This document shows positions 3,083 to 63,061 of a stretch of 64,000 bases of DNA, in pieces. Positions within the stretch are counted from its first letter, which is position 1. Each line of letters opens with the position of its first letter. Below the pieces are notes generated by a model. The model did no database searches and was not told the DNA's origin. It worked only from the letters and a program-made list of their open reading frames with translations. The stretch comes from a virus (lineage: Duplodnaviria > Caudoviricetes): the IMG/VR virus record IMGVR_UViG_2519899535_000001, positions 3,526 to 67,525 of that record; one strand, written 5' to 3'. The position numbers and the translations under genes are program-made.

Positions 3083-3889
3083 TTAGTTGCTGGGGGTGCC
3101 GTTGAGGATCTGCAGCTTGGTTTCGTCAGCGATCTGCTTGCGCAGCTCTGCCACGGCGGCCTCGATGGTCTTGTGCGGGCGGATCAGCTCAATCCACATC
3201 GTCAGGCGGCCACCGTCCTGAATGCGGTAGCGCAGGCGCACGTTGATCTGCCACTTGGCGCCGTTCTCGAACACAGGGATGCCGATGATGAATTCCTCGG
3301 GCACCTTGAGCTGGCCCTTCTGCGCGGTGCCCTGCACGTCTTCCTCGTAGGTGAACTGGTGCGAGCCGTCCGACAAGCGGATGGCGCTGGCGAAGTTCAC
3401 CTTCTTCTTGGCTTCCAGGGTGCGGCAGATTTCCAGCAGGGTTGCGCCGTCTGGGCTCACCACGTCCACCAGGTTGTTTTCGATGAACTGGGCCAGTTCC
3501 ACCTGGGACTTGTGAATGCCGTCCATGCCGTTCCAGGCCTTCCACTCGGGGGACAGCGGCGCGTTGTACTGAGCACGGTGATCGCCCCAGCCGGGTTCGG
3601 TGCCGATGTGGTTGAACACGGCGGTGAAGGTGGGCGGGTCGATGGTGCTGAACAGGCGAGTGCTGCCTTCGGTCTTCTGGTCGTTTACCACTGCGATGAA
3701 GCTCTCGGCGTCTTTCAGGGTGGTAACACCCTTCTTGCGTGCGGGAGCTGCCAGGGTGTGCTCCAGCGTTTTCAACTCGTAGCCTTCGGGCAGGATCACG
3801 GCAGGGATGCCTGCGCCAAAGGCGTAGCCCTGCTGATGACATGCGGCCAGCTCGTCGCGGGCCTGGGTTTCGGTTTTTTCTTGTCCCAT
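3083..3889 (-). CDS. yfdQ: DUF2303/YfdQ-family phage protein
   Basis: SFIAVVN...TAVFNH...GWGDHRAQY...SPEWKAW...FIENN pattern; next to YfdP-like gene. Confidence 0.8.
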   Translation of the reverse strand: MGQEKTETQARDELAACHQQGYAFGAGIPAVILPEGYELKTLEHTLAAPARKKGVTTLKDAESFIAVVNDQKTEGSTRLFSTIDPPTFTAVFNHIGTEPGWGDHRAQYNAPLSPEWKAWNGMDGIHKSQVELAQFIENNLVDVVSPDGATLLEICRTLEAKKKVNFASAIRLSDGSHQFTYEEDVQGTAQKGQLKVPEEFIIGIPVFENGAKWQINVRLRYRIQDGGRLTMWIELIRPHKTIEAAVAELRKQIADETKLQILNGTPSN

Positions 3890-43363: not shown

Positions 43364-43452
43364 GGTGACTCCCTCCGCACATCACTCTATCAGCAGTCCC
43401 AGCACAAGCGTTGGTGGTGCCGACGCGGCTGGTGAAGGGTGGCGCGCCCCGT

Positions 43453-43488
43453 ATAGGGTTCGGCGCTTTCAGCTCTGCACGCGAGCAT
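43453..43488 (+). promoter_or_regulatory. Late promoter motif 5 (giant gene)
   Basis: ATAGGGTT at 43453, GAGCAT at +30. Confidence 0.7.
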
Positions 43489-43494
43489 GCGTGC

Positions 43495-49400: not shown

Positions 49401-52400
49401 AGAGGCCTTGCAACAGGGCACTGACCCGTTGGTGTTCAAAGACCCTGAAACCGGCCTGTGGGAGACGGCCGACGCCTACCTGTCGGGCATGGTCAAGCGC
49501 AAGCTGAACGCTGCGCGCGCCGCTGGCATGACCAAAAACGCTCAGGCACTGGAGAAGGTCATTCCCGCCGACTGGACCGCAGAGAACGTGGCTGTGACCA
49601 TGGGCGCCACCTGGGTGCCGCCTGAAATCTATGCAGATTTTGTGCGCCATCTGGTGGGCGGCAAGGCGCGGGTGAGCTTTTCGGCTCTGACCAACAGTTT
49701 CAGTGTCAGCGTGGACGGCGCCGAGCGCACCAGCATGTCCAACTGGAGCAGCGAGGGTGCGCCAGCCGACTACATCATCACCCGCATCCTGAACAGCAAA
49801 GCTGTGACCGTCACCGCCCGCGATGCGGACGGCAACACCTTCATCGACAAGGAGCGCACCGCCCTGGCTGGGCTCAAGGCCCGCGAGATTGAGGCCGAGT
49901 TTGGCGACTGGGTTTTCAAGAATGGCGAGCGCCGCCAGCGTCTGGTGGATGTGTTCAACGAGAAGTTCAACACGCGCGTGGTGCGCCAGTTCAATGGGCA
50001 GCACCTGCAACTGCCCGGCAAGGTGCCCGACGCCATCCTCAAGATGCGCCGACACCAGATGAATGCCATCTGGCGCGGTATCTACGAGCGCTTCATGCTG
50101 GTGGACCACGCCGTGGGCGCGGGCAAGACCTTCACCGCCATCGCGCGTGCGATGGAGCGCCGCCGCATGGGGCTTTCGCGCAAGCCCATGGTGGCTGTCC
50201 CCAATCACCTGGTGGAGCAGTGGGCCGCCGATGTGTACCGTCTGTACCCTGGCGCCAAGGTGCTGGCCGCCGGCAAGAAGGATTTCGAGGCCAAGCGCCG
50301 CCGCCGCCTGTTCGGCAAGATCGCCACGGGCGACTGGGACATCGTGATCGTGCCCCATTCGTCCTTCGGGTTCATCGGCATTGCCCCGGAAACGGAGTCT
50401 CGCTACCTGGAGCTGGAAATGGCCCAGGCGCAGGCCGCCATCGAGGACGCCTGGGAGCAGGCCAAGGAGGACGGCACCGACAACGGGCGCCGCAAGCCCT
50501 TCAACGTGAAGGAGGCCGAGCGCCTGGCCGAGAAAATTCAGGCTCGCATGGATCGCCTGGCGGAGGGAGTGCGCGACCGCCTGCTGACCTTTGAGCAGCT
50601 GGGCGTGGATGACCTGACCGTGGACGAAGCCCATGAGTTCAAGAACCTGTACTACTCGTCCAACCTGACGGGTGTGCGCGGCATGGGCGACAAGACCGGT
50701 TCGCGCAAGGCCAACGACCTCTACAACAAGGTGCGGGTGCTGCGCGAGCAGCCCACCGGTAGCGTCACTTTCCTGACTGGCACACCGATCAGCAATAGCG
50801 CCGTGGAAATGTTCACGATGCTGCGCTACCTGGCGGCCGACGCGCTGGACGAAATGGGCCTGTCCCACTTCGACGCCTTCCGCGCGCAGTTCGTGGAGGC
50901 CACGCCTGCGTTTGAGCCCACCGAATCCGGCCGCCTCAAGCAGGTCACTCGCCTGGGCCGCACGTGGTCGAACATGCGCTCGCTGATGGACCTGTACTAC
51001 CAGGTCACGGACGCCGTGAGCCTGGACGACATCAAGCGCTTCTACGCCGAGGACAACCCCGGCCGCGAATTCCCTGTGCCCAAGGTGGCCGGTGGGAAGG
51101 ACCGCAACCTGGTGGCCATCAAGCCCACGCCAGCACAAGAACAGGGCCTCAAGGAGGTGATGGACGGATTCGACGGCCTGGACGGCATCGAAGACCCCTA
51201 CGAGCGCAACGCAGAGCGCCTGCGCCTGATGGACCGGGCGCGCAAGCTGTCTCTGGACATCCGTGCAGTGGACCCGCGCAGCACCAGCGCCGAGGAAGGC
51301 GGCAAGCTGCAGGTGGTGAGCGAGAACATCAAGCGCATCTACGACAAGTGGGATGCCGACAAGGGCACGCAGCTCGTATTCCTGGACCGCTCTGTTCCCA
51401 AGGCCAAGGGTGACGACGCGATCATCAAGGCCTACGATGACCTGATCGCCAAGCGTGATGCCGCACTGCGCGACGACAACCAAGAGGCGTTTGACGAGGC
51501 GCAAGAAGCCCTCGACCGCTACGATCCCCAGGAGATTGCCGAGCTGCGTATGGCGCAAACCTCCCCATGGAGCGCCTACCAGCAGATCAAGGACAACCTG
51601 ATCGCCGCTGGCATCCCCGCCAACGAAATCCGGTTCGTTCAGGAGGCCAACAACGACGAGCAGAAGGCCGCACTGTTTGACGCCGTGAACGGCGGCAAGG
51701 TGCGCGTAATGATCGGTTCGACCCCGCGCATGGGCGCCGGTACCAACGTGCAACAGCGCATCGTGGCACTGCATCACGTTGATGTGACCTGGAAGCCCAG
51801 CGACATCGAGCAGCGGGAGGGCCGTGCCATCCGCCAGGGCAACCTGCTCCTGGAGAAGTACGGCGATAGCTTCGAGGTGGAAATCCTGGCCTACGCCACC
51901 GAGCGCACGGTGGACGCCAAGATGTGGGACTTGAACGCGACCAAGCTGCGCACCATCAACGGTATCCGCAAATACGACGGCGCGTTTTCCATGGAGTTCG
52001 ATGACGAGGAAGCCGTGGGCATGGCCGAAATGGCTGCCCTGGCCTCCGGCAACCCCCTGTTGCTGGAGCGCGTCAAGACGGAATCGGAAATCACCACGCT
52101 GGAGCTGCAGGAGCGCGCTTTCCGCCGCAGGATGTTCGGCATCGAGGACGCGGTGGACAGCGCAGAGCGTGCTATCGAGCGCAACCCCGGCCGCATTGCC
52201 GACGAGCGCGCCAAGAAGGTAAAGGCGAATGCGGCCATGGAGGCGGCCGACGCGCGCAAGGCCGCGCGCCGCGTGACCATCGAGGGCAAGGAATACGACA
52301 ACCTGCGCGACGCTATGACCGCCGTGAACGAGGCCATCGAGCAGCAGCAGGGCGGCAAGCCCACGGCGCGCTACTCGATTTCCGTGGACGGCGCGCGCCT

Positions 52401-55400
52401 GACCAACAAGGACGGCATCGACACTGCGATTGGCGCTGCCCTGGGCGATGCATCCCTGTTCGATGTGACCATCGACGGGCGCCTGATCGCCCAACACACC
52501 GTTGCCGCACGTGAACTGGCCGCCAAGTTCAACGAGCTGACCAAGGGCATCCAAGCTGGCGACTCGCGCACCGCCACTGTGGGCGACATGCTGGGCTATG
52601 ACCTGGTGCTGGACGCCCAGGCCCGCGAAACCGGCAAGGGCGGCGCCCAGATCGACGCCTCGGTGTCGCTGGTGGACGCGGACGGTACCACCGTGACCAG
52701 CCGTGGATTGAATTCATTCGCAGTCAATCAGTCCGTGGTGCCCGCCAATGTTCGCAATCTGGTGACTGATCTGTTCGATGACATTGGCCGCCTGGCCAAC
52801 AGCAGCACCGACTACCTGGAGCGCCAGCTTGCGCGGGCGAAGGCAGATCTGCCGGCACTGCGCGAGCAGCTGAACCAGACGTTCCCCAAGGCGGCCGAGC
52901 TGGTTGCCAAGCGTGAGCGCCTGCGGGAGCTGGTGGGCATGCTGGAGGGCAAGCCGCAGAGCGCCGTTCAAACGACCCCTGAAGAAGCCGAGGCGGGTGA
53001 CGGATCTCCGGGGGGCGACGTGGCGGCATTCCGACGCGACGGTGCCGAAAGCTCAGAGCGGGCGACCGAGTTCGACGTGGATTCGTTCCTCAAGGCCATG
53101 GGGCGCCCAGCGGCCTACTCCGAGGCCGCGCAGCGGCAGGCCATAGACTCCGTTTCAGCCACGGTGGATGCCATCCGCACTGCCTGGGGCCCGAACGCGC
53201 CAGAGGTGGTGGTGGCCTTCGACATGCAGGATGAGCGCATCCCAGAGGCCGCCCGCAAGGCCGACCTGCGCCAGCGCAGCGGCGGCGCACGCGGAGCGCC
53301 CGAGGGCTTCTACTACCGTGGCAAGGCCTATCTGGTGGCCTCTCGCCTGAACACGCCAAATGATGCGGCGCGCGTGCTGTACCACGAGGTGCTGGGACAC
53401 CACGGTCTGCGCGGTAAGTTCGGCCGCGATCTGGACCAGGTGCTGAACCAGATCGCCACCATGCGCAAAGCCGAGGTGGCCGCCAAGATGCAGGAGTACG
53501 GCCTGCGGGGCGTGAACAGCCTGAGCGTGCGCGAGGCGGCCGAGGAAGTTCTGGCGGAAATGGCCGAGAAGAACCCCCAGCTGCCGTTTGTGCAGCGGGC
53601 GATTTCAGCCATCCGCAACTTCCTGCGCACCCATGTGCCGGGCTTCCAGAGCCTGCGCCTGACGGACAGCGACATCATTCAGGCGTACATCATGCCGGCA
53701 CGCGGATGGGTGGAGCGCGGTGGCCCCGGTGGTCCTGGTGGTGGTGTCAGTTTCAGCCGAGACGCGGGCCGAATGGAGGCGGACGCGCTCCGGCTGCTGG
53801 CCGCCGCAGCTCGCTCTTCCGGCAACGAGAACACCACGCTTGTCCTGGGGCCGGTGACAGACGATGCCTTGGCCATGCTGCAGCGCGAGGGCGTTCCTGT
53901 GGAGTCAGGCTATCGGCACACTGCCGACATGTATGCGGTGCGCCACGCCCTAAGTCGTCACGGCGATGCGCAAGTGGAGGCGAAGCAGGGCCAGCTGCCA
54001 CTGAGTGATGCGGACATCGCGGCCATTCCAGAGGCCATTGCAGCGCCGGATGCTTGGATTCTTGGGGCCAAGACGCCGCGCGGGCAAGACATCGTGGGCA
54101 ACCTAAAGCGATTGCCTGATGGAACGGTGCTGTATTTGGAGGAAGTGCGCTCGGGGCGCAAGGCGCTGGCGATGACCAGCATGAGAAAGTACCCCGGTAC
54201 GACGGATTTTGAAACGATCAGGAATCGAATCGTGCCGTCCTACGCCCAGAGCGATACCGGGGATTTGCGTATTGTCTATCCAGCCGGCGCTGCCGGTCAA
54301 GGAGAGGTCCTGTTCAGCCGCTCCAGCATGGCGGACTTGAAGGACAGTGCGCTGCAGCAGATCCACCAGACCCTGTCCCACCCCGGAAAGGTGTCGTTGT
54401 GGGATAAGACAGTGGGCACCATGCGCAACCTGGCAGAGCGCTCGCCGGTGTTCAAGCCGGTGTACGAGGCTGCGCAGCGCTTCATTGATGACGTTTCCAT
54501 GCTGGGCAACGATGCGGCCGACCGCGCGCCGCGCTTGCTGCCCCGGGTTGAAACGCTGGCCGACCTCAAGAAGAAGCCCATCACCGCCGCCGACAACCAG
54601 GCTGTGGCCAAGCCCCTGTTCGAGGGCACGCTGCTGTGGGCGCGCGATGTGGACGGCAAGCCAGTGACCACCGAGGCGCTGAACGCGAAGTACCGCAACA
54701 CCACGCCCGACGAAAAAGCGCAGATCCTGCTGCGCACCGGCAAGATTCAGGAGCAGATGCTCAAGGTATGGCGCGGCCTGCCGGTGGATCAGTACAACAC
54801 CATCATCAACAACAAATTTGATAGCACCATCCTCAAGCCGGGTGTTGTCTGGACGGCGAAAGAGCTGAAAGACTTGTTCGACCTGAGCGCCCAGCAGGTG
54901 AGCCTGTACCAGGAGGCGCGGGCCGCGATTGACCGATCGATCGACATGACCGCCCGCGCCGACATGCTGCGCGCGCTGGGTGCCGGATACGCTGGCCTGC
55001 GTGAGGCAGTGCTGGCGCAGGCCAGCGTGGAAGACGCGATGGTGCTCATCACGGACACGCTGCAGGCCGAGGCGCGCGAGCAGCCTGACCAGGCCGACCG
55101 CATCCTGAGCCTGAACAACGCCGTGGTGAAGAGCTACGAGCGCGCCCAGGCGCTGATGGAGGCCGGCTACGCGCCGCTGTCGCGCTTTGGCCGCTACACC
55201 GTGGACGTGGTGGGCAAGGACGGAACGCGCGAGTATTTCGGCATGTTTGAGTCGATGTACGAGTCCAACAAGATGAAGGCCGCCATGGAGAAGGAATTCC
55301 CAGGCGCGACCGTCACCCAGGGCACCATGAGCGATGAGGCATTCAAGCTGTTCCAGGGCATCACCCCGGAAAGCCTGGAGCACTTCGGTGAAATGTTGGG

Positions 55401-57183
55401 CTTGAGCGGCGATGGCAGCGATCCGAAGGACAAGGCATTTCAGGCATACCTGCAGCTGGCCAAAAACAACCACAGCGCGCTCAAGCGCCTGATCCACCGC
55501 AAGGGCATCAGTGGCTACAGCGAGGACGTGGGCCGCGTGCTCGCCAGCTTCGTGTACTCCAATGCGCGCCTGGCGGCCGGCGGTCTGAACGCAGGCACGC
55601 TGGAAACGGCCATCGAGGGCATCCCCAAGGAGCAGGGCGAGCTGCGCGACGTGGCGATGGGCCTGCGCAGCTACATCCAAGACCCGCAGGAGGAAGGCCA
55701 GGCCGTGCGCGGCATGCTCTTCGCGCAGTACCTGGGCGGCTCCGTGGCTTCGGCCATGGTCAACATGACCCAGCCTTTCCAGATCACCATGCCCTGGCTG
55801 TCCCAGTTCGGTGGCATGCGTAGCGCCGCATCGCACCTGGCTGCCGCAGTGCGCGACATGACCCGCCGCAGCAGCTACGAGCCAGACCTGGCCAAGGCGC
55901 TGCAAACGGCAGAGGCCGAGGGCATCGTTTCGCCCCAGGAAATTCACCAGCTCATGGCCCAGGCGCGGGGCGCGGGCTCGCTGCGCACGGGCGATGGCAC
56001 CAAGCTGGGCGACGCACGCGCCGCGGCGGCCAACAACTGGGAGCGGGTGAAGGTGGCATGGGGCCAGCCATTTGCACTGGCAGAGCAGTTCAACCGCCGC
56101 AGCACCTTCATCGCCGCCTATCGCATCGCCAAGGAGCAGGGCATGGCCGACCCGGCGAAGTTTGCCGAGCGTGCAGTGCAGGAAACGCAGTTTGTGTACT
56201 CCAAGGCGAACAAGCCGAAGTGGGCGCGCGGTGCCATCGGCGGCACGCTATTCACCTTCAAGACCTATTCGGTCAGCTACCTGGAGCTGATGCACCGCAT
56301 GTGGAGCCAGGGCGGCCCCGAGGGCAAGCGCGCCGTGGGCTGGGCCGTGGCCATGCTGCTGCTGATGGGTGGTGCTGGCGGCCTGCCGTTCATGGAGGAT
56401 GCCGAGGATCTGATCGACGGCGCCGGCCAGCTCATGGGCTACAACATCAGCACCAAGCACTGGCGCAAGCAGGCGCTGCGCGACGTGGTGGGCAAGGAGC
56501 TGGCCGACTTCATGGAGCAGGGTGTGTCCGGCTTGCCCGGTGCGCCCATCGACGTGTCCGGCCGCCTGGGCATGGGCAACCTAATCCCCGGCACCGGCCT
56601 GCTGCTGGCCAAGCAGAACCGGGAGCGGGACCTGCTGGAGGTGGCTGGGCCCGCGGGCGACCTGGTGGCGCGCGGCTTCACTGGCGCGCGCAAGCTGCTG
56701 ACCGGCGACGTGGTCGGCGCGGCGCTGGAGGTGTCGCCAACGGCGGCGCGCAATTGGGCCAAGGGCATCGACATGGGTACCAGCGGTATCTACAAGGATG
56801 CCAAGGGCTACAAGGTCATCGACACCACGCTGGAAGAGGCCATTGCGAAGTTCGCGGGCTTCCAACCCAAGAGCGTGGCCGAGGTGCAGGAGGCCAACTC
56901 CTTCATGCAGCGCTCCAAGAGCTTCTACATCCAGACCAGCAACGACATCAAGGCGCAGTGGGCACAGGCGGTGTTTGAGAAGGACGACGCCGCGCTGCAG
57001 CGAGTGCGCGACCGACTGGCCGCCTGGAACCGCAACAACCCGGACCAGCCTATCGTGGTGAAGATCCCGGACGTGATGAAGCGCGTGCGCGAAATGGGCA
57101 AGGACCGTACCCAGCGGATTGCCGACACCGCGCCCAAGGCCCTGCGGGATCAGATGCGGAGCATGGCCAAAGAGAACGGGTAG
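43495..57183 (+). CDS. Giant DarB-like polyvalent virion protein (~4,562 aa): N6-MTase, SNF2 helicase, HExxH peptidase-like, PBECR-like, PLxRFG, LPD38-like
   Basis: VLESSMGSGNF (47764), IGNPPFG (47953), HAVGAGKT (50107), DEAH (50623), QREGRAIRQGN (51811), HEVLGHH (53383), PLSRFG (55174). Confidence 0.9.
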   Translation: MSDTFSYEDAAKPAPSTKSESAKPFSYEEATGQTPSRGFKGWAQDVAGTAINSAISVPEAVVGLADIPTGGAVGKFLENEGGSVGFRPKQAKEFVNETIKSDASREAHRKFNEADGIVDKTVAAIQNPSLILEGVGESLGAMGAGGVASRGLMAATKLGQMGAKGAALAGAAGEGITMAGSAAEQIRQETPDGSLTPTQSGLALATGLVGGAIGAFSGRVANKLGIGDAETMLAQGTKGMAKTEADGAARAAANPLVQQLAAKSIPRQVISGAISEGFLEELPQSVAEQIFQNVALGKDWLTDVDSAVVMGVLSGGAMGGAAAGYHGIRQPKGGAGDAPTAQPGAVPADGGAQPGAAPTNPGMERIQQAFAAQLAALQQQEQGDPPVPQTAPPDGAAALAQQQAQAEAQRQAAIDASRAVQSPDDEIYQSTGMQSSQNVTRDENAAPSIADMLDTDAVYRAWSNLRDGSDRSTMRGQMDYVERTYGGKVSPENRASAEKELAQQFKWFRAATPEQRAATMDRLSAPDPVKPSVAMGLNPAAGPLSAGAALAVDTGVSDQVQQAAALAQAAEVAQKQGKKPAQSNQKQERQALTQQGVNQETGEISQGLPMESWSDAQLSNTFRGAQSREVRMQLAQELGRRRALREQQELQAELDAEQRASVPGAERADAAFASLTEDAGPVPADLTIPATTEGNRNGPQAAQAQQGSAQPSQVGAAPAVARGAPDAQGRSGADGAQQAAAAGLIDGAPTANPGMQAAAAPGAQVAPQAEGSAQRVASTGDAWTRMPTAERQALAQRADLKPIVRKNVHRAAWADLNRDVQRKLAEAMEPSAKNDATYTKALELVRSAGVVKRPAIQDALGIGFDEVNALMERMEREGVVTAAKANGERALLSVGTSPTGEAAPVAAPSVSRQDAEQEQAGTSAESAPAAINSEADKDGNTIVGRRSDGVMIRQDKNGVRWYAQGGVRIEETVSMRPTRQGMQVTRGELKPEFMTAAESEAAKSAASPAPAAENAINVSDENQTGTSTKEAPVATNSVAKKAPPAAKKPSADQVRAQADLMNALADLGDILGKNTRMNIMPEQEQKLLPVLTRVLDAAFRLGYHKFKDSAKFALDQIRANLGDDAADALTLDHLQGAYIAMAGGKTGADTKRAVIDVESKAEIEAHEASVAAEEDEADNAQQENPSDERTTVRSESPQALDAVAAQEGGRAESERGAGAGAANSGQTGAAGSAVADGAGFSPARGGGSGVEPVRAPKTRARGRAGAVGAQGAGATGEPVPQADGRVAVPGGEASAPNIPAADFQITDEVGLGKGGEVQKFTDNLAAIRTLKAIEAANRRATPEEQAMLARYVGWGGLANAFPDPGTGQFKDKWRARGEELRDLLTKEEYTAARRSTRNAHYTSQTVVSAMWDMVRRLGYRGGLVLESSMGSGNFLGLAPKDMPNRFVGVEYDSLTARIGQALYPQATVLHSGFQKVPVADNAFMLNIGNPPFGSESLRFQFKPELQGVSIHNQFFRAGMDALRPGGIQAMVVSRFLMDAQDKSSRLALAAQARLVAAIRLPDTAFKENARTEVVTDILIFQKMDAGDQAAMQAAITEYNKLKANKKGADAAAAALVPSWVETVKVPDPLGGEAMNVNAYFAENPANVLGVMERSGSMQHGADITVRLDNPAELGELLRAAVQRLPEGIQNFQQDVLDATAARHKSMSDALRIAVANEEAGHIKASPDGKLQRVIERETPEGDFEFAYQEIDENSPWHESLSQNAEGQWYSMEPVLDEQGKNVKAMNANGEATRKNLYERKVYAKPEDVPEKLRLGKLGMKRLSGLVGLRDLLKRQLVLETADAVPAMMEGNRKSLAAAYEAFVKANGPVGRATNMRLAMTMPDGGLIAALEVDYQPERTAEQAARSGLEAQKEKATPAPILRERVVPKYEPATKAASPSDALAITLAESGRVDMDRIASLLDISPEQAGEALQQGTDPLVFKDPETGLWETADAYLSGMVKRKLNAARAAGMTKNAQALEKVIPADWTAENVAVTMGATWVPPEIYADFVRHLVGGKARVSFSALTNSFSVSVDGAERTSMSNWSSEGAPADYIITRILNSKAVTVTARDADGNTFIDKERTALAGLKAREIEAEFGDWVFKNGERRQRLVDVFNEKFNTRVVRQFNGQHLQLPGKVPDAILKMRRHQMNAIWRGIYERFMLVDHAVGAGKTFTAIARAMERRRMGLSRKPMVAVPNHLVEQWAADVYRLYPGAKVLAAGKKDFEAKRRRRLFGKIATGDWDIVIVPHSSFGFIGIAPETESRYLELEMAQAQAAIEDAWEQAKEDGTDNGRRKPFNVKEAERLAEKIQARMDRLAEGVRDRLLTFEQLGVDDLTVDEAHEFKNLYYSSNLTGVRGMGDKTGSRKANDLYNKVRVLREQPTGSVTFLTGTPISNSAVEMFTMLRYLAADALDEMGLSHFDAFRAQFVEATPAFEPTESGRLKQVTRLGRTWSNMRSLMDLYYQVTDAVSLDDIKRFYAEDNPGREFPVPKVAGGKDRNLVAIKPTPAQEQGLKEVMDGFDGLDGIEDPYERNAERLRLMDRARKLSLDIRAVDPRSTSAEEGGKLQVVSENIKRIYDKWDADKGTQLVFLDRSVPKAKGDDAIIKAYDDLIAKRDAALRDDNQEAFDEAQEALDRYDPQEIAELRMAQTSPWSAYQQIKDNLIAAGIPANEIRFVQEANNDEQKAALFDAVNGGKVRVMIGSTPRMGAGTNVQQRIVALHHVDVTWKPSDIEQREGRAIRQGNLLLEKYGDSFEVEILAYATERTVDAKMWDLNATKLRTINGIRKYDGAFSMEFDDEEAVGMAEMAALASGNPLLLERVKTESEITTLELQERAFRRRMFGIEDAVDSAERAIERNPGRIADERAKKVKANAAMEAADARKAARRVTIEGKEYDNLRDAMTAVNEAIEQQQGGKPTARYSISVDGARLTNKDGIDTAIGAALGDASLFDVTIDGRLIAQHTVAARELAAKFNELTKGIQAGDSRTATVGDMLGYDLVLDAQARETGKGGAQIDASVSLVDADGTTVTSRGLNSFAVNQSVVPANVRNLVTDLFDDIGRLANSSTDYLERQLARAKADLPALREQLNQTFPKAAELVAKRERLRELVGMLEGKPQSAVQTTPEEAEAGDGSPGGDVAAFRRDGAESSERATEFDVDSFLKAMGRPAAYSEAAQRQAIDSVSATVDAIRTAWGPNAPEVVVAFDMQDERIPEAARKADLRQRSGGARGAPEGFYYRGKAYLVASRLNTPNDAARVLYHEVLGHHGLRGKFGRDLDQVLNQIATMRKAEVAAKMQEYGLRGVNSLSVREAAEEVLAEMAEKNPQLPFVQRAISAIRNFLRTHVPGFQSLRLTDSDIIQAYIMPARGWVERGGPGGPGGGVSFSRDAGRMEADALRLLAAAARSSGNENTTLVLGPVTDDALAMLQREGVPVESGYRHTADMYAVRHALSRHGDAQVEAKQGQLPLSDADIAAIPEAIAAPDAWILGAKTPRGQDIVGNLKRLPDGTVLYLEEVRSGRKALAMTSMRKYPGTTDFETIRNRIVPSYAQSDTGDLRIVYPAGAAGQGEVLFSRSSMADLKDSALQQIHQTLSHPGKVSLWDKTVGTMRNLAERSPVFKPVYEAAQRFIDDVSMLGNDAADRAPRLLPRVETLADLKKKPITAADNQAVAKPLFEGTLLWARDVDGKPVTTEALNAKYRNTTPDEKAQILLRTGKIQEQMLKVWRGLPVDQYNTIINNKFDSTILKPGVVWTAKELKDLFDLSAQQVSLYQEARAAIDRSIDMTARADMLRALGAGYAGLREAVLAQASVEDAMVLITDTLQAEAREQPDQADRILSLNNAVVKSYERAQALMEAGYAPLSRFGRYTVDVVGKDGTREYFGMFESMYESNKMKAAMEKEFPGATVTQGTMSDEAFKLFQGITPESLEHFGEMLGLSGDGSDPKDKAFQAYLQLAKNNHSALKRLIHRKGISGYSEDVGRVLASFVYSNARLAAGGLNAGTLETAIEGIPKEQGELRDVAMGLRSYIQDPQEEGQAVRGMLFAQYLGGSVASAMVNMTQPFQITMPWLSQFGGMRSAASHLAAAVRDMTRRSSYEPDLAKALQTAEAEGIVSPQEIHQLMAQARGAGSLRTGDGTKLGDARAAAANNWERVKVAWGQPFALAEQFNRRSTFIAAYRIAKEQGMADPAKFAERAVQETQFVYSKANKPKWARGAIGGTLFTFKTYSVSYLELMHRMWSQGGPEGKRAVGWAVAMLLLMGGAGGLPFMEDAEDLIDGAGQLMGYNISTKHWRKQALRDVVGKELADFMEQGVSGLPGAPIDVSGRLGMGNLIPGTGLLLAKQNRERDLLEVAGPAGDLVARGFTGARKLLTGDVVGAALEVSPTAARNWAKGIDMGTSGIYKDAKGYKVIDTTLEEAIAKFAGFQPKSVAEVQEANSFMQRSKSFYIQTSNDIKAQWAQAVFEKDDAALQRVRDRLAAWNRNNPDQPIVVKIPDVMKRVREMGKDRTQRIADTAPKALRDQMRSMAKENG
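45584..45727 (+). CDS. Nested +1-frame basic peptide (47 aa) MALKPPKPSKVARNRRKSEQ...
   Basis: AAGGA RBS at 45572; GC-rich third positions in the +1 frame, A/T-rich in the main frame. Confidence 0.55.
   Translation: MALKPPKPSKVARNRRKSEQRQQSHVEHQMLKDAQARMARSKQPLQA
45731..45823 (+). CDS. Nested +1-frame basic peptide (30 aa) MAPRLRTLECKQRQRQARKLRRKQKALHSA
   Basis: Starts 3 nt after previous nested stop; same codon-bias shift. Confidence 0.4.
   Translation: MAPRLRTLECKQRQRQARKLRRKQKALHSA
47054..47353 (+). CDS. Nested +1-frame gene (99 aa) MSAQLYEAKARKHWTQWLPKK..., TnpV-like helical protein
   Basis: AGGAG RBS at 47039; typical codon usage and globular sequence while the main frame is G/A/R-rich. 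Confidence 0.75.
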   Translation: MSAQLYEAKARKHWTQWLPKKVAALKASGELEQALQTAGKQAQQEVLSLMEQGFRQHEAEEVALSQYVLLKPEPEAELEPWERKELAQLESQYRKQMGA

Positions 57184-57189
57184 CCCGGT

Positions 57190-57225
57190 ATAGGGTTGGG
57201 GGAAATGAGCGCGAGCCGGAAAACT
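57190..57225 (+). promoter_or_regulatory. Late promoter motif 6 (lysis)
   Basis: ATAGGGTT at 57190, AAAACT at +30. Confidence 0.7.
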
Positions 57226-57233
57226 CCGGGCTC

Positions 57234-57533
57234 ATGAAAACAGAAACCATCGACGCTCTTGCCACGGCTGGCGGTCGCACCTCCGGCGGCGGCGCTGTCG
57301 TTGGCTTTCTTGGCTGGCTCGCCTCATCCCAGGCAATCGGTCTGTTCGGCGTGTGTATTGCGCTGCTGGGCGCCCTGGTGAGCTGGTACTACAAGCGCGA
57401 AGCAAACCGCCGCCTGGCCGCCGAGCACGCATTGCGCCAGCAGGAGCGCCAGATGCGCATTGACATCATGCGCAACACCGGGCGCGTGGTTTCAGGCAAT
57501 ACCGACTTGGGCGAGCTGGGAGCCGACGAGTGA
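57234..57533 (+). CDS. Holin (HP1-like)
   Basis: Two hydrophobic segments then SWYYKREANRR; precedes endolysin. Confidence 0.8.
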   Translation: MKTETIDALATAGGRTSGGGAVVGFLGWLASSQAIGLFGVCIALLGALVSWYYKREANRRLAAEHALRQQERQMRIDIMRNTGRVVSGNTDLGELGADE

Positions 57534-58168
57534 GCCGCGTTCCCGCCCAGCTGCGCACCAGCCTGGCCGCCCTGGTCATGCTGATGGGCGCCGGTGGTGG
57601 GGCCTACTACGTGGACGAGGCCGCCACACGCGAGGCCAACGCCAACGCCTACATCCAGGCCGTGGCCGCTGATCCCGAGGTATCGGACGGCATCCGCATT
57701 GCCATGGTGATGGCCAGCTACTACGAATCCAGCAATCGCCACATCGGCACGCCCTACGTGGACAAACTGGGCAAGGGCCAGCCGCTCACCGTCTGCAATG
57801 GCCTGACCGGGCCCGAGGTGGTGGCGGGTCGCATCTACACCCCCGCCGACTGCTACCGGCTGGAGAAGCGCCAGTACATCGGCTACGAGGTCGAAGCCAA
57901 GCGCCTGCTCACGCACTGGGCCAGTTACGACCCGTTCCAGCAAGCCACCTTCCTCGACTTCCTGCACAACAAGGGCGAGGGCCATTTCATCGGCAGCACC
58001 ATGCGACGCAAGGCCAATGCCGGGGACTGGGAAGGCGCCTGCCGCGAAAACCCGCGCTGGAACAAAGGCACGGTCAAAGGCGTTTCCACCGTGCTGCCGG
58101 GCCTGCAGCTGCGCGGCGACTCCAACGAGGAAATCTGCACATCCTGGCGCCTTGGGGTTAAAAAATGA
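57530..58168 (+). CDS. SAR endolysin (GH24 lysozyme)
   Basis: N-terminal A/G-rich TM; YES...PYVD...TVCNGLTG; RWNKG. Confidence 0.9.
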   Translation: MSRVPAQLRTSLAALVMLMGAGGGAYYVDEAATREANANAYIQAVAADPEVSDGIRIAMVMASYYESSNRHIGTPYVDKLGKGQPLTVCNGLTGPEVVAGRIYTPADCYRLEKRQYIGYEVEAKRLLTHWASYDPFQQATFLDFLHNKGEGHFIGSTMRRKANAGDWEGACRENPRWNKGTVKGVSTVLPGLQLRGDSNEEICTSWRLGVKK

Positions 58169-58245
58169 TCTGCTTTGTACGCATTTCATTCTTTTTGCTC
58201 ATTTTGTGTATCACGGGTTGCGCTGTGCTCCGCAACAGTAAGTAA
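58165..58245 (+). CDS. Hidden 26-aa lipoprotein MICFVRISFFLLILCITGCAVLRNSK
   Basis: ATGA overlap with endolysin stop, TAATG overlap with spanin ORF, lipobox ITGC. Confidence 0.6.
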   Translation: MICFVRISFFLLILCITGCAVLRNSK

Positions 58246-58823
58246 TGCGAGGCTATGCCGTGAACTTCACCCTCATCACCCATCTGATCGCCGCGGCGGT
58301 GGCCGCTGCAGCAGCCTGGTTCTACCAGGGCGCGCAGATGGATGCGGCCGTGGCCAAGCTCAACGCCACCCATGCAGCGCAGGAGTCGGAGCGCCACCGC
58401 GTTGCGCTGGATGACGCCCGCGCCACTTTCCGCAAGGGCGAGATCCACGCCCGCAACCAACAGGAGATTGCCGATGCCCACGCTGCCCAAGAAAAGCGCC
58501 GTCTTGCTCGCCTTGCTGCTGCCGCTGCTGACGGTGAGCGGCTGCGCAAACAAGTCGCTGAATACGCCGCCACCTGTGGTGGGGGAGAAACCGACAGCCC
58601 AGCCGTTGTCCTCCAGCGTTGCCGGGATCGCGCCGCCACCCTCGGGGTTCTATACGGAGAAGCTGACAGCCAGGCGGAAGCGTTCGCAGGAGCTGCTGAA
58701 CAGCACGCCGATGAAGTCCGCACCCTGATGCGCGTGATCCAGAACGACCGCACCCTGCTGCCACCGGCTGGTGGCCTGGGACTCAAAGCGCCGAACCGGC
58801 CGGATGCCGGAACCACACCCTGA
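58245..58823 (+). CDS. i-spanin (Rz-like); start 58245 or 58260
   Basis: N-terminal TM (LIAAAVAAAAAWFYQG) + coiled coil. Confidence 0.85.
   Translation: MRGYAVNFTLITHLIAAAVAAAAAWFYQGAQMDAAVAKLNATHAAQESERHRVALDDARATFRKGEIHARNQQEIADAHAAQEKRRLARLAAAAADGERLRKQVAEYAATCGGGETDSPAVVLQRCRDRAATLGVLYGEADSQAEAFAGAAEQHADEVRTLMRVIQNDRTLLPPAGGLGLKAPNRPDAGTTP
58474..58728 (+). CDS. o-spanin (Rz1-like lipoprotein), embedded in i-spanin
   Basis: CAGGAG RBS; lipobox VSGC; Pro-rich mature part. Confidence 0.85.
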   Translation: MPTLPKKSAVLLALLLPLLTVSGCANKSLNTPPPVVGEKPTAQPLSSSVAGIAPPPSGFYTEKLTARRKRSQELLNSTPMKSAP

Positions 58824-58831
58824 GTACCACC

Positions 58832-59236
58832 ATGCCCTCTACCACCATCAAATACTTCGCCTTCGCCCACCTGCCGCCCAAGCTGCAGGCCGTGAGCAAG
58901 CCCCTCGGTGAGCTGGCTGAAAAGCTGGAAGACCTGTTACCGGACGGCCCCGAAAAGAGCGCAGGCATGCGCAAGCTGCTGGAGGCCAAGGACTGCTTCG
59001 TGCGCTGCGCTATCGACCTGCCTGAGCCTGTCGCCAGCACCGTGCCTCCCCATCAGCAGCGCGTCATCGACGAGAAGGCCGCCCGCGACGGCGAAATCAC
59101 CCGCCTCAATGCCTTCATCGGCGGCAATCCCGTGTTCACCACCTTGCCTGCCGAAGAACAGGCCCGCCTGCGCCGCCAGCTCGATGTGATGCGCGAGCTG
59201 TCCGTGATCCTGGGCGAGCGCATCGCGGCTTTCTGA
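58832..59236 (+). CDS. Two-domain protein: helical hairpin (Acb2/Tad1-like?) + crAss001_48-like domain
   Basis: YFAFAHLPPKLQAVSKP...LPDGPEKSAGMRKLLEAKDCFVR; PPHQQRVIDEK...L..QL.VM.....IL.ERIA.F. Confidence 0.7.
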   Translation: MPSTTIKYFAFAHLPPKLQAVSKPLGELAEKLEDLLPDGPEKSAGMRKLLEAKDCFVRCAIDLPEPVASTVPPHQQRVIDEKAARDGEITRLNAFIGGNPVFTTLPAEEQARLRRQLDVMRELSVILGERIAAF

Positions 59237-59261
59237 CCACCACCCCCCCCAAGAGCACACC

Positions 59262-59948
59262 ATGACCCAATTCCGCAAGAAGCCTGTCGTCATCACGGCA
59301 ATCACCTTTGACCAGCTCGTGACCCACGGCACAGAGCGATGCAAGGCCGAAGGCCGTGAGTCGAACATCGTGAATGGCATGCCCTGGTCGTTCAGCTACG
59401 CGGGCCACCCGATCACCCACGAGAACGACGATTGCTACCTGATCCCCACACTGGAAGGCACCATGAAGATGGGCCGCGATGACATGCTCATCACGGGCGT
59501 GAAGGGGGAGATCTACCCGTGCAAGCGGGACATTTTCGAGGCCACCTACGACTTGGCCCCTGCCGATCTGGAGCAGGAGATCCAGGCCAAGGCCGACAAG
59601 GGCCCGCGTGTGACGCCCGCAGCGCTGCAAGCCGAAATCGTCAGCGCCCACTACTTCACTGCATATCAAGGCGCCGTCATGGCTACGAGCGGCCCGGTGC
59701 CCGGCGAACTTGGCCTTCTGACCTTCTGCGTCCTGGTCCTGCGCAATGGCTTCACCGTCATCGGCCACAGTGCCTGCGCCAGCCCGGAGAACTACAACAA
59801 GGAAATCGGGGAGCGCATAGCCCGCGAGAACGCAGAGCGCGAAATCTGGCCCCTGCTGGGCTTCCGTCTGCGCGACGAGCTAGCCCGCCCGGTGCTGACC
59901 GATGCAGATGCCGCTGCGGATCTGGCCGGCACCCCACGCCCCACCTGA
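59262..59948 (+). CDS. Two-domain protein: RKKPVVI..A/YPCK.DIF SH3-like domain + Phage gp49/66 (Acb4-type) domain
   Basis: FRKKPVVITA...TLEG...GVKGEIYPCKRDIFEATY; RVT...LTFCVLVLRNGFTVIG.SACASPENYNKEIG..IA.ENA...IWPLLG. Confidence 0.8.
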   Translation: MTQFRKKPVVITAITFDQLVTHGTERCKAEGRESNIVNGMPWSFSYAGHPITHENDDCYLIPTLEGTMKMGRDDMLITGVKGEIYPCKRDIFEATYDLAPADLEQEIQAKADKGPRVTPAALQAEIVSAHYFTAYQGAVMATSGPVPGELGLLTFCVLVLRNGFTVIGHSACASPENYNKEIGERIARENAEREIWPLLGFRLRDELARPVLTDADAAADLAGTPRPT

Positions 59949-59982
59949 TTACGGCTGCATGGCCCGCAGCAATCCGCCAATG

Positions 59983-60017
59983 AAAAAGCCCCGCCGCAGT
60001 GATGCAAGCGGGGCTTT
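59983..60017. terminator. Bidirectional terminator
   Basis: AAAGCCCCGC / GCGGGGCTTT stem between convergent genes. Confidence 0.75.
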
Positions 60018-60021
60018 GTGT

Positions 60022-60345
60022 TTATGCAGTGGGCATCTTGTCGTAGTCAGCCAGCGGCATTTCCGTCCCGTCATGTGCCACCAGCACGCCCGCTGTCGTG
60101 GCTGACACCTCCACAGGGCGGTCATTGAACTTGCCCACCTCGGGGGCGTACCCAGGTATGGAGACACCCCCATACAGCTGCGTCAGCCGCAGGTCGTCGG
60201 CCTGTTTCTGGGTCAGAATCAGCTTCTGCGGTTTCTTATCTGGGTGCTTGATCCAGTGCGTGCGGAAGGCGTTCGACACCCTGCGGTGGAGTTCTGCCAT
60301 TCCGGGGTGGTGTGGGGGTAGGTCAACGATGTTTTGGGCGGCCAT
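60022..60345 (-). CDS. Hypothetical protein downstream of int
   Basis: 107-aa ORF with normal codon usage. Confidence 0.65.
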   Translation of the reverse strand: MAAQNIVDLPPHHPGMAELHRRVSNAFRTHWIKHPDKKPQKLILTQKQADDLRLTQLYGGVSIPGYAPEVGKFNDRPVEVSATTAGVLVAHDGTEMPLADYDKMPTA

Positions 60346-60384
60346 GGATGTTGATTGTCCACGGTCCAGAGGGGGTGCCCCAGC

Positions 60385-61662
60385 TCATGCCACCCTGCGC
60401 AACCGGACCACGTTCGCCTCACCATCGCGGCCGGGTGGGGCGCTGTTCTCGCACCCCACCAGGTAGTCGGCCCAGAGTTTCAGGGCCCTGCGGCGCTCCG
60501 GTATTTCCTCCCGCACGTCATAGACCCCCTCCATGCCCTTGAGTGTGTGGTTCAGGGCGATCTCGGAGATTTCGCGCGACACCCCCATGTTCATGAGGTG
60601 GCCCTTGGCCGTGCTGCGCGTGTCGTGGGGGGTGAATTTACGGATGTCCATGTCGCCGCGCTCAAACGCGCGCCGCAGTGCCGCCCAAAGGGTTGTGCGC
60701 CCGATAGGTACATCGCCCAGCTCTTTGGAGCGGTCAGCGCGGCGAGTGGGCAGCACGTACATGGAGTCGCCAGAAAGGGCGATCAGCTCGTGGAACCAGT
60801 CAACGACGACCGGGGCGAGGGGCACCAGGAAGCCGGCGCGGGTTTTGACGGACTCTGCTGGCACCCACCAGGTGCCAGCCTCCAGATCCAGGTGTTCCTT
60901 CTTGGCCTTCACCAGCTCCACCCCGCGCACGCAGGTGGCCAGCAGGATGCGGAAGGCCAGGGCGTTCTCGCGGCCGATGAAGTCGATGCCCGGCAGCAGG
61001 GATTGCAGCTCCTTGTTCTCCAGCATGACGCGCTGGCGTGTCTTGGGGCGAGGACCCTTGAGCGCGGACAGCTTGATGCCGGTGCACGGATTGGCCGCAA
61101 TGAGAGTCAGCCCGCAGGCGTGGTCGAGAACCTTGGAGATAGAGGTGAGCAGCCGCTTTGTCATCAGCCACGTTCGGCCGCTCTCTTTGAGGACTTTCAC
61201 GACATCAATGCTTGTCACCTTGTCCACCTGCCAGGAACCCAGGCGCGGAAGGATCACCTGGTCGATGTCGGCATTGCGGTAGTAGATGGTGTCCTCTGCG
61301 AACACATCCGGGCGGAGCACCTTCTCTCGATAGTCGGCAACCAGCTCGCGCATGGTCCATGCTGCTGCGGTGCGCGACTTGCGCTCCTGCTTTTCGGCCG
61401 CCGGGTCCGCGCCACCGTCGATGGATGCGCGCAGCGCGCGGGCTTTCTCCCGTGCCGCCGCGAGTGTCACGTCCGGGTAGCTGCCGATGGTCAGCTCGCG
61501 CCGCCGCCCGCCCTGCACGCGATACCGGAGCACCCAGGTTGCGGTGCCGCCTTTGGAGAGGGTGAATGTCAGCCCATCGCCATCCGACTTGGCGACCGCC
61601 TCACCTTTTGAGATCCAGCGCTTGATCTGTATGTCGGTGAGCGTGTGACTGATTTTGGGCAT
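60385..61662 (-). CDS. int: Tyrosine integrase with N-terminal arm-binding domain (P4-like)
   Basis: LTDIQIK...SDGDGL...W..RYR..G.RR..TIG.YP..TLA.AR; R, HDTRST, LNH, GVYD catalytic motifs. Confidence 0.95.
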   Translation of the reverse strand: MPKISHTLTDIQIKRWISKGEAVAKSDGDGLTFTLSKGGTATWVLRYRVQGGRRRELTIGSYPDVTLAAAREKARALRASIDGGADPAAEKQERKSRTAAAWTMRELVADYREKVLRPDVFAEDTIYYRNADIDQVILPRLGSWQVDKVTSIDVVKVLKESGRTWLMTKRLLTSISKVLDHACGLTLIAANPCTGIKLSALKGPRPKTRQRVMLENKELQSLLPGIDFIGRENALAFRILLATCVRGVELVKAKKEHLDLEAGTWWVPAESVKTRAGFLVPLAPVVVDWFHELIALSGDSMYVLPTRRADRSKELGDVPIGRTTLWAALRRAFERGDMDIRKFTPHDTRSTAKGHLMNMGVSREISEIALNHTLKGMEGVYDVREEIPERRRALKLWADYLVGCENSAPPGRDGEANVVRLRRVA

Positions 61663-61678
61663 CGGCAGTCCTTTTTTT

Positions 61679-61714
61679 GGGTAGCTAGGAGTGTAGCTAC
61701 CCACCTAGCTACCC
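61679..61714. repeat. TAGCTACCC repeats (arm-type/Xis sites)
   Basis: Direct at 61694 and 61706, inverted at 61679. Confidence 0.6.
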
Positions 61715-61822
61715 GGAGTTGATGCGCCAATGAGAATCAGTGTGCGACAGTGTGAATCAAAAAACCCAATGAAAACAACGGCTTGCGATACTGGCTGAGA
61801 CGTTGTGATCCACTCTGAAACA

Positions 61823-61852
61823 CTAATTGAAATTCCAGGTGGCAATTTGCAT
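61823..61852 (-). pseudogene. xth: 5' remnant of exodeoxyribonuclease III gene (MQIATWNFN*) = probable att junction
   Basis: ATG CAA ATT GCC ACC TGG AAT TTC AAT TAG matches the ExoIII N-terminal IATWNVNS motif, then diverges. Confidence 0.7.
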
Positions 61853-61867
61853 GGTTTTTGGCCGGTA

Positions 61868-61899
61868 GCGCTAGTGGATCAAGCGCTGGCAGCTATCAA
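61868..61899. repeat. Host intergenic palindromic element
   Basis: GCGCT-N9-AGCGC-N5-GCTATCAA. Confidence 0.6.
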
Positions 61900-61931
61900 A
61901 ATGTGAGTAGAAGAGTGATGGGGCTGCGCCG

Positions 61932-62420
61932 TCAGCTGCGGCGCACACGGGTCACAAAGCTGAACGACAGTCCGTTGGTGCTGACATGGTGCTCGCGGGC
62001 GGTTTCTACCCATTCTGCGCCCAGCACGGGGGCATAGGCATCGCCGTCAAAGTCTTGCGCAATCTCCGTCACCTCCACGCAGTCCGCCAGGGGCAGGGCC
62101 TCGGCATAGATCTGCGCGCCACCGATGATCCACACGGTCTTGCCCGTGTCGCAAAGCGCCAGGGCTTCCGCCAGGCTGCCAGCGCGGTGGGCACCCTCGG
62201 CCTGCCAGTCGCCCTGGCGCGTCACCACGATGTTGGTGCGGCCGGGCAGTGGGCGAAAGCGCGGGGGCAGCGAGTCCCAGGTCTTGCGGCCCATGACCAC
62301 CGGGCAGCCCTGCGTGAGCTGCTTGAAGTGCGCCATGTCCTCGGGGATGTGCCAAGGCAGGCGGTTGTCCTTGCCGATGACGCCGTTGGCCGCGCGGGCG
62401 TAAATGAGGTGCAGGGGCAT
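61932..62420 (-). CDS. folA: Dihydrofolate reductase
   Basis: IYARAANGVIGKDNRLPWHIPEDMAHFK..T.G.PVVMGRKTWDSLP..PLPGR.N; IIGGAQIY. Confidence 0.97.
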   Translation of the reverse strand: MPLHLIYARAANGVIGKDNRLPWHIPEDMAHFKQLTQGCPVVMGRKTWDSLPPRFRPLPGRTNIVVTRQGDWQAEGAHRAGSLAEALALCDTGKTVWIIGGAQIYAEALPLADCVEVTEIAQDFDGDAYAPVLGAEWVETAREHHVSTNGLSFSFVTRVRRS

Positions 62421-62452
62421 GGGGCTCGCTCGGTGCTTGAGTGGGGAGGGGA

Positions 62453-63061
62453 TCAGATGTGCAGGAACGCCAGCGCGCCCACGCCCAGGCCCACGGCGGC
62501 CACGCCGTACATGCCGTATTCCAGCCACTTCTTCTTGGTCAGCAGCGCAATGGCAGCCAGGGCAATCGCTACCTGCAGCGCGGTGGTGGCCTGGGCCCAG
62601 CGGTGGTGCTGGTGCATTTGGGCTTCGCTTTGCTGGTCGAACGCGTGGGCGTCGGCCTCCAGCTTCTCGGCCACAGTCTTGATCTCGTTCTTTTCTTTTT
62701 CGTAGCGGTCGATCTTGCCCTGGTACTTGGCCTTTTCGGTCTCGGCGGGGGTCAGGTCACGCGCCAGCTCGGCCAGGCTTTGTTTGGTGCTTTTGGACTG
62801 AAAGTAATTCCACTGGTTGGAGGCCTCGGTCTTCTTGATGGCCGCGTCGTTCTTCATCAGGCCGGCATTGGCCTGCGTGGCGCCGCCCATGTAGGCAAAG
62901 ATGGCGCCTACCGTGGCCACGATGGCCGTGAACATGGCGATCTTGTTGGTGGACGAGCTGCCGCCGTGGTCAGCGCCGTGGTGTGCAGCATCGTGGCCGT
63001 GGGTGGCATGTTCGACCGCGTGGTCATGGGGGCCGTGTACGTGGAATCCGCCGGAAGACAT
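62453..63061 (-). CDS. DUF4337-like membrane protein
   Basis: FHVHGPHD...IAMFTAIVAT...ASNQWNYFQSKSTKQ; three TM segments. Confidence 0.8.
   Translation of the reverse strand: MSSGGFHVHGPHDHAVEHATHGHDAAHHGADHGGSSSTNKIAMFTAIVATVGAIFAYMGGATQANAGLMKNDAAIKKTEASNQWNYFQSKSTKQSLAELARDLTPAETEKAKYQGKIDRYEKEKNEIKTVAEKLEADAHAFDQQSEAQMHQHHRWAQATTALQVAIALAAIALLTKKKWLEYGMYGVAAVGLGVGALAFLHI

Follow-up and report, generated by a model that had tools for sequence, protein, structure and literature searches.

A two-gene, four-module cassette with Sequestin and Acb4 domains in an Acidovorax prophage, probably directed against CBASS and Thoeris signalling

Introduction

What might two small genes of four domains contribute to the prophage that carries them? 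The question is raised by a stretch of 64,000 nucleotides, hereafter the window, from the virus record IMGVR_UViG_2519899535_000001 (Duplodnaviria; Caudoviricetes; positions 3,526 to 67,525). The 3' part of the window is a prophage end, where two co-directional genes, here called geneA and geneB, lie between a spanin gene and a strong terminator. An earlier note, made from the sequence alone, had placed four small domains in these two adjacent genes after the lysis cassette. That layout is correct and all four domains matched Pfam or PHROG families: the cassette consists of two genes and four modules, each gene encoding two domains. The AlphaFold2 models of the geneA and geneB proteins (pLDDT, the predicted local distance difference test, 89.5 and 86.7) each have two folded units and a linker of lower confidence. 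Lengths are in amino acids (aa) and coordinates are those of the window.

58832-59236, + strand: geneA, open reading frame (ORF) of 134 aa with AN module, linker and Sequestin domain
58832-59017, + strand: AN module, geneA residues 1-62, identified by phrog_1761 and phrog_5120
59045-59233, + strand: Sequestin domain, geneA residues 72-134, Pfam PF21825 (crAss001_48)
59262-59948, + strand: geneB, ORF of 228 aa with BN module, linker, Acb4 domain and short tail
59262-59561, + strand: BN module, geneB residues 1-100, identified by phrog_419, phrog_4502 and phrog_1810
59610-59885, + strand: Acb4 domain, geneB residues 117-208, Pfam PF13876

Sequestin and Acb4 are sponges of nucleotide immune signals. 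A review dated October 2026 names seven sponge families (Acb2, Acb4, Tad1, Tad2, Sequestin and Lockin, as well as TadIV-1) and does not include AN or BN. Judged by homology, the two genes are probably a four-module anti-signalling cassette, directed against both Thoeris and the cyclic oligonucleotide-based antiphage signalling system (CBASS), in a cargo slot of an Acidovorax prophage. Here we describe the sponge domains, the partner modules and their setting, and weigh what the partner modules could do.

Results

The C-terminal domain of geneA is a Sequestin

Residues 72-132 of geneA match PF21825 with 54.3 bits (cut-off 24.8; E 1.2e-14) over profile positions 1-60 of 61, and its identity amounts to 48% with SequestinC and 44% with SequestinB. 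The earlier note knew of no assigned function for this crAss001_48 domain, a statement that is out of date since the family, discovered because no other Pfam family is partnered with Tad2 and Acb4 as often, has been named Sequestin and validated as a sponge of 3'cADPR, a cyclic ADP-ribose (Tal et al., bioRxiv 10.1101/2025.07.12.664507). Type I Thoeris was inhibited by ten of the 13 Sequestins assayed there, and purified protein sequesters 3'cADPR. According to the AlphaFold3 model of the same authors the ligand is coordinated by R8/E12/Q47/R61 of SequestinA, equivalent to R7/E11/Q45/R59 of SequestinB, and the E, the Q and the second R of this site were essential by mutagenesis. In geneA the residues R77, E81, Q116 and R130 align with those of SequestinB at identical spacing (BLASTP); they are kept in 27, 26, 29 and 29, respectively, of 29 homologs. 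Sequestin protomers are helical hairpins that assemble into antiparallel homodimers or tetramers; the monomer model of the geneA domain shows the hairpin (helices 73-98 and 107-133, pLDDT 96-98), and a Foldseek search of the geneA model against the PDB gave no match at E<=0.001.

GeneA 72-134 belongs to the Sequestin family, and its role as a 3'cADPR sponge is predicted. It shares Pfam family, helical hairpin and the R/E/Q/R ligand residues with characterised members (cf. SequestinB, SequestinC and T4 Y16O) but bears the 62-aa AN module at its N-terminus, whereas the majority of Sequestins stand alone, with a length of 60-80 aa. The exact 134-aa protein is present among the Sequestin homologs of Table S1 of Tal et al., as IMGVR_UViG_2519899535_000001 from Acidovorax sp000302535.

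The C-terminal domain of geneB is an Acb4 domain

The earlier note had equated the gp49/66 family with Acb4, rightly so: PF13876 is the Acb4 family of Chang et al. (bioRxiv 10.1101/2024.12.30.630793). Its SPO1 member is a tetramer that sequesters 3'3'-cGAMP and other, related CBASS signals, and cGAMP was bound by eight of eight assayed homologs. Residues 117-206 of geneB match PF13876 (Phage_gp49_66) with 97.2 bits (cut-off 27; E 8e-28). The model of the domain matches the Acb4 crystal structure PDB 9E4W, clear of unrelated matches that resemble double-stranded RNA-binding domains (dsRBD), and its protomer has the dsRBD-like fold of Acb4 with helices flanking a three-stranded sheet.

The ligand of SPO1 Acb4 is contacted by K36, F48, E49, V56, Y57, F62, N63, I66, T70 and K81 (Chang et al.). 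In a phmmer alignment F48, F62, N63 and I66 are kept in geneB as F164, Y178, N179 and I182, V56 is C172, and the alignment does not reach K36 and K81; T165, A173 and I186 take the places of E49, Y57 and T70, so that the ligand preference of geneB may differ from that of SPO1 Acb4. The fold and part of the pocket appear conserved by this comparison, from which the exact ligand preference cannot be read. GeneB 117-208 belongs to the Acb4 family, with a putative role as a sponge of CBASS signals. It is set apart from SPO1 Acb4 by an identity of only ~25%, by these replacements, and by the addition of the 100-aa BN module and a tail of 20 aa. Such 'extensions' of Acb4 are mentioned by Chang et al., who left them unstudied.

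Homologs of geneB with 78-90% identity occur in Acidovorax and relatives, and that of Acidovorax sp. NB1 (78% identical) is in the Acb4 list of Chang et al. (Table S3). Both genes are present in published homolog tables and are therefore already catalogued by their sponge domains, which add nothing new by themselves. In some geneB homologs BN and Acb4 are separated by ~47 inserted, Cys-rich residues (..LCADCGAVKGSRRGGL.C..), and some have a C-terminal extension ending ..CDLSGDAPCEACQ (homologs with insert or extension, as listed: P0011, P0035, P0040, P0061, P0070; P0003, P0009, P0019, P0071); these may be metal-binding add-ons.

AN is a widespread helical module whose link to the Acb2/Tad1 hairpins is not statistically supported

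The AN module matches phrog_1761 (E 1e-28) and phrog_5120 (E 7e-23). It is modelled as a short helix and a helical hairpin (helices 4-9, 16-35 and 40-60) with the motif LPDGPEKSAGMRKLLEAKDCFVR. By tblastn it was identified in 371 phage records, among them Vibrio, Erwinia, Acinetobacter, Rhodobacter and Microcystis phages, and homologs with ~45-50% identity occur in Mycobacterium, Gordonia and Brevibacterium phages. In viral contigs AN is mostly a stand-alone ORF of 62-68 aa; the longer proteins carry a Sequestin domain (most of them), a RyR domain of the RyR Tad fold (P0246, P0253 and L038), Acb4 or BN. In a Pfam scan of 74 ORFs that flank 40 stand-alone AN genes, various genes of nucleotide metabolism, capsid, portal and lysis were recognised but no known anti-defence family.

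Three stand-alone AN homologs of 61, 78 and 93 aa, given as predicted hexamers in the screen table, were chosen by the structure-guided sponge pipeline of Tal et al., which selects short homo-oligomers with positively charged pockets. According to their Table S2 none caused culture collapse with Thoeris I, Thoeris II, cGAMP-CBASS, cCMP-Pycsar or cUMP-Pycsar; the cCMP-Pycsar strain did not receive the 61-aa homolog.

The earlier note had likened AN to the Acb2/Tad1 hairpin class. The resemblance is one of motif and topology: like the Acb2/Tad1 hairpin (PF24729; T4 Vs.4), AN has a short helix followed by a hairpin and a C-terminal helix with the motif KLxEAxxxxxRA at the same spacing, and Acb2 and Tad1 are hexamers, as is predicted for its stand-alone homologs. 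No Pfam family other than PF24729 gives AN a match of this kind, which at 12.2 bits and E 0.22 is below the cut-off of 27. Sub-threshold matches were obtained for 14 of 43 stand-alone members (best E 0.0093), and in the set of 43+6 family members one of a Brevibacterium phage reached 16.4 bits; the positive controls T4 Vs.4 and the Acb2 homolog of E. coli siphophage 716R3 scored 71 and 64 bits. Alignment of the AN profile with seven Vs.4/Acb2-type sequences by hhalign gave a probability of 0.1%, with the helices KLLEAKDCFVRA and KLKEASMWACRA paired. Hidden Markov model (HMM) and sequence searches of the PDB with geneA and the A2 profile recovered neither Acb2, Tad1 nor any other sponge, and fold searches were swamped by generic hairpins. 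Given scores of 12-16 bits against a cut-off of 27, the hhalign result and HMM searches of the PDB in which no sponge appeared, the link is not statistically supported and we do not file AN under Acb2/Tad1. A further difference is that in the assays of Tal et al. neither cGAMP-CBASS nor Thoeris was inhibited by the stand-alone homologs.

BN is a beta-rich module that recurs in sponge fusions

Residues 1-~105 of geneB match phrog_419, phrog_4502 and phrog_1810. The BN model is beta-rich, with six strands and two to three helices, and its near-invariant motifs are KKPV(VI), TLEG and G.GE.YPCK.DIF..TY (GVKGEIYPCKRDIF..TY). The N-terminal strand with the invariant KKPV is unpaired in the monomer model (pLDDT 71). 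A total of 750 phage records contain BN, among them those of Bacillus phages (SPO1-like and SBSphiJ-like), many actinophages and mycobacteriophages, as do at least 10,967 cluster representatives (50% identity) at E<=1e-3; its stand-alone proteins have 80-113 aa. Among the 94 representatives of at least 140 aa, the partner was Sequestin in seven, Tad2 in four, Acb4 in two and the Acb2/Tad1 hairpin in two; a few other partners occur once each and ~70 representatives are without a Pfam partner. BN-Lockin fusions are present in the Lockin homolog table of Tal et al. The recurrence of this RKKPVVI..YPCK domain in fusions with sponges, which the earlier note had stated, is borne out by these partners.

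In the protein atlas BN falls with unnamed viral clusters only (0.84-0.85), the nearest named families being PGDYG and WDGH (0.76-0.77, below lead level), and in fold searches with the whole geneB model the match lists were filled by the Acb4 domain. PGDYG (PF14083) was rejected as an assignment at 12.2-12.6 bits, below its cut-off of 27; two of the 94 longer BN relatives reach it at E 4.4e-5, because of which a distant relationship is possible. We found a function or mention of PGDYG in no paper, and no published test of BN in the literature. With its 28 separate BN-like stretches (30% identity), a predicted protein of 3743 aa (P0261) may be a giant repeat protein or else an artefact of assembly.

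AN and BN accompany at least six sponge families and are more conserved than their cargo

An AN+Sequestin gene directly followed by an Acb4-bearing gene was found in eight viral contigs (L006-L013), in which the region before Acb4 varies: L007 and L008 have another beta domain, and L009, L011 and L013 hydrophobic segments. In the closest viral-contig relative, L006 (4429-5418; geneA identity 94%), the second gene fuses three domains, a gp68_N-like beta domain, Tad2 and Acb4, which marks the slot before Acb4 as a site of module swapping. The modules also occur apart, as in L073:3953-6055, where AN (91 aa), BN (105 aa), Tad2+Sequestin (152 aa) and an Acb4 protein with a hydrophobic N-terminus (342 aa) are four consecutive separate genes. 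In L025 and L030 AN and a partial BN form a fusion that contains no known sponge. Taken together, the sponge domains fused with or next to AN or BN are Sequestin, Acb4, Tad2, Lockin, RyR-Tad and the Acb2/Tad1 hairpin.

Within the same full-length homolog sets, mean pairwise identity is 0.80 for AN versus 0.53 for Sequestin, and 0.73 for BN versus 0.53 for Acb4. AN and BN are autonomous and very widespread phage domains, repeatedly joined or adjacent to at least six sponge families and under stronger purifying selection than their sponge domains. These fusion and neighbour patterns and this higher conservation speak against a role as mere linkers or tags.

Locus, transcription and host

The cargo slot of the cassette lies between the lysis genes and the integrase gene, with the following neighbours.

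43411-57183: giant virion-type protein of 4590 aa, upstream of the lysis genes
57234-57533: holin, with Pfam support
57530-58168: lysozyme, with Pfam support
58245-58823: spanin
59985-60017: terminator hairpin (59985-60024 including the flanking A-run and T-run), between geneB and a convergent 107-aa ORF
60022-60345, - strand: 107-aa ORF, between the terminator and the integrase gene
60385-61704, opposite strand: integrase gene

The spanin stop is 8 nt from the geneA start and the geneA stop 25 nt from the geneB start. The terminator hairpin has a folding free energy of -22.4 kcal/mol (z -3.67), and none of 200 shuffles was equally stable. In the scan of 57100-60500 no sigma-70-like promoter site was found, nor by eye anything convincing upstream of 58740, so by its sequence the cassette looks like the tail of a late operon. 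Two side observations concern this slot in other phages: in E. coli phage vB_EcoS-716R3 an Acb2/Tad1-hairpin protein (64 bits to PF24729) follows the spanin gene (L166:1468-1761), and in Brevibacterium phage AGM16 a stand-alone AN homolog follows the holin gene (L178:201-395). This suggests that the post-lysis slot is a recurrent anti-defence site.

RNA sequencing runs, all from one study and with contig depths that cannot rank genes, gave separate short contigs over geneA in runs X3 and X4 (58744-59266 and 58738-59237, with a leader of ~90 nt) and one over geneB (59464-59944), the lysis genes being patchily covered. These contigs give no more than a hint that the cassette is transcribed separately in the lysogen, like a moron. 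The RNA-labelled runs X1 and X2 have contigs of 21-42 kb across the prophage end (window 55000-62600); long and of even depth, these are uninformative on transcription, and they point to DNA carry-over or induced phage, not transcript. Contigs of the X3 and X4 libraries over 60117-61441 have a depth far above that of the prophage late genes. For the 107-aa ORF, possibly an excisionase or regulator, neither Pfam nor PHROG gave a family.

The window lies within a complete 5.2-Mb genome with a single PF13876 copy. The host has a two-gene type I CBASS (G000 C1:2258.3-2259.8 kb; L175:4322-5759) consisting of an oligonucleotide cyclase (PADLOC, E 1e-130) and an adjoining 2TM effector (E 8e-73). It also has a cluster of ThsB-type Toll/interleukin-1 receptor (TIR) proteins (C1:3436.9-3442.1 kb; L174:3926-9095), the three members of which have 155, 161 and 380 aa and match at E 2e-94, 2e-72 and 2e-75; no ThsA was found among the neighbouring host ORFs scanned with PADLOC. 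A prophage with Acb4 and Sequestin is coherent with a host that has CBASS and TIR proteins, the link being circumstantial.

Discussion

A proposed cassette against two signals

The mechanism that we propose for the cassette follows from its domain families. The Sequestin domain of geneA would form antiparallel dimers that hold 3'cADPR (1''-3' gcADPR), the signal of type I Thoeris, in pockets between the protomers, while the Acb4 domain of geneB would form tetramers that take up CBASS cyclic dinucleotides such as 3'3'-cGAMP. With both sponges present, ThsA-type and CBASS effectors would stay off. In our working view AN and BN would add a further activity, a second ligand or a second target, and not act as passive linkers. 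The earlier note had proposed a multi-specific module against CBASS, Thoeris and Pycsar: the first two specificities follow from homology, and for Pycsar, to which nothing in the cassette points, we have evidence neither for nor against.

A close parallel is the Acb4-Sequestin fusion of Pseudomonas phages (Ab09 gp59 / YH6; Tal et al., Fig. 1C), where the same two sponge families, encoded in an anti-defence hot spot, act against CBASS and type I Thoeris; Ab09 gp59 bound gcADPR tightly and cGAMP weakly, and inhibited both systems (bioRxiv 10.64898/2026.06.04.730250). There the two sponges share one protein of 147 aa, whereas here they reside in two adjacent genes, each with an uncharacterised module of its own.

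Three observations weigh against a double sponge. Three of the 13 Sequestins assayed by Tal et al. were inactive against type I Thoeris; only four of the seven alignable SPO1 Acb4 contacts are kept in geneB; and the two genes stand, with no promoter-like site, at the 3' end of a late lysis cluster, an odd timing for a sponge, although the RNA contigs over geneA hint at transcription of its own.

What AN and BN could be

One possible role, which we hold tentatively, is that AN, BN or both are new nucleotide-signal sponges for other ligands (e.g. cyclic trinucleotides, N7-cADPR, cA4/cA6 or 2'3'-c-di-AMP), which would make the cassette one of three or four sponges. Both are small autonomous proteins of sponge size with a conservation above that of the sponge domains, and the stand-alone AN homologs passed the sponge pipeline of Tal et al. 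as predicted hexamers. Known sponges are often fused together (Tal et al.), and the company kept by the modules is of this kind: AN is fused to Sequestin, RyR-Tad, Acb4 and BN, and BN to Sequestin, Tad2, Acb4, the Acb2/Tad1 hairpin and Lockin, while in the close relative L006 the slot of BN is filled by Tad2, a validated sponge. This is countered by the three stand-alone AN homologs, negative in the screen of Tal et al., and by the neighbours of the 40 stand-alone AN genes, among which no anti-defence genes are recognisable.

The negative screen would fit a different role, which we hold equally tentatively, in which AN and BN are assembly or scaffold modules that oligomerise the attached sponge for avidity or stability and bind no signal. 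The precedent is RyR Tad, described in a preprint, which in Pectobacterium phage CB1 gp68 consists of an N-terminal beta module followed by a C-terminal helical gcADPR sponge; the beta domain is a domain-swapped dimer that alone is inactive against type I Thoeris. BN holds the same architectural position as this N-domain, AN is also fused to RyR domains, a gp68_N-like domain occupies the BN slot of L006, and an unpaired invariant KKPV strand is what would be expected of a swapped strand. The RyR domain itself is absent from the window. Against a scaffold role, BN is not detectably related to the CB1 gp68 N-domain (BLASTP E 19, hhalign probability 2.4%). A scaffold role is also hard to reconcile with the hundreds to thousands of stand-alone AN and BN copies that occur without a sponge and with the AN+BN fusions of L025 and L030 that lack a sponge domain, and a mere tag is not expected to exceed its cargo in conservation.

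We regard it as unlikely that AN and/or BN act on proteins, either blocking a TIR protein, a cGAS/DncV-like nucleotidyltransferase (CD-NTase) or an effector, as Tad3-Tad8 do, or disarming guards such as Panoptes. Guard systems of the Panoptes type fire when sponges take away a decoy nucleotide, and Panoptes is triggered by Acb4 and Acb4-Sequestin proteins (bioRxiv 10.64898/2026.06.04.730250). A countermeasure to a guard that senses sponges could well be partnered, as AN and BN are, with sponges of unrelated ligand specificity, and a conserved target would fit the very high conservation that AN shows from phages of Proteobacteria to those of Cyanobacteria and Actinobacteria. That the cassette is unrelated to defence, its products being structural or regulatory phage proteins that share sponge folds, is very improbable: the position at a late-operon end and the resemblance of the Acb4 fold to dsRBD and ribosome-hibernation proteins would allow it, but the family matches exceed curated cut-offs by a wide margin, the ligand residues of the Sequestin domain are intact and the assayed relatives are sponges.

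Implications

In our reading of geneA and geneB as a probable anti-CBASS and anti-Thoeris cassette, the interest lies in the partner modules, AN and BN being among the most frequent fusion partners or neighbours of six sponge families. The published fusion search of Tal et al. could not see them because only partners with a Pfam family were considered. Stand-alone copies of both are frequent in well-studied phages, and the two modules are the lead that this cassette offers. Once it is clear whether they serve as sponge, scaffold or guard-breaker, thousands of phage genes would gain an annotation, and it would emerge whether sponge fusions are multi-ligand or sponge-plus-helper devices. BN, and possibly AN, might even represent a new and very large phage anti-signalling family, either a sponge with a ligand outside the five screened systems or a module that protects against guards, a proposal that we put forward with reserve. 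If true, a sizeable share of the 'hypothetical' small phage genes would gain a function.

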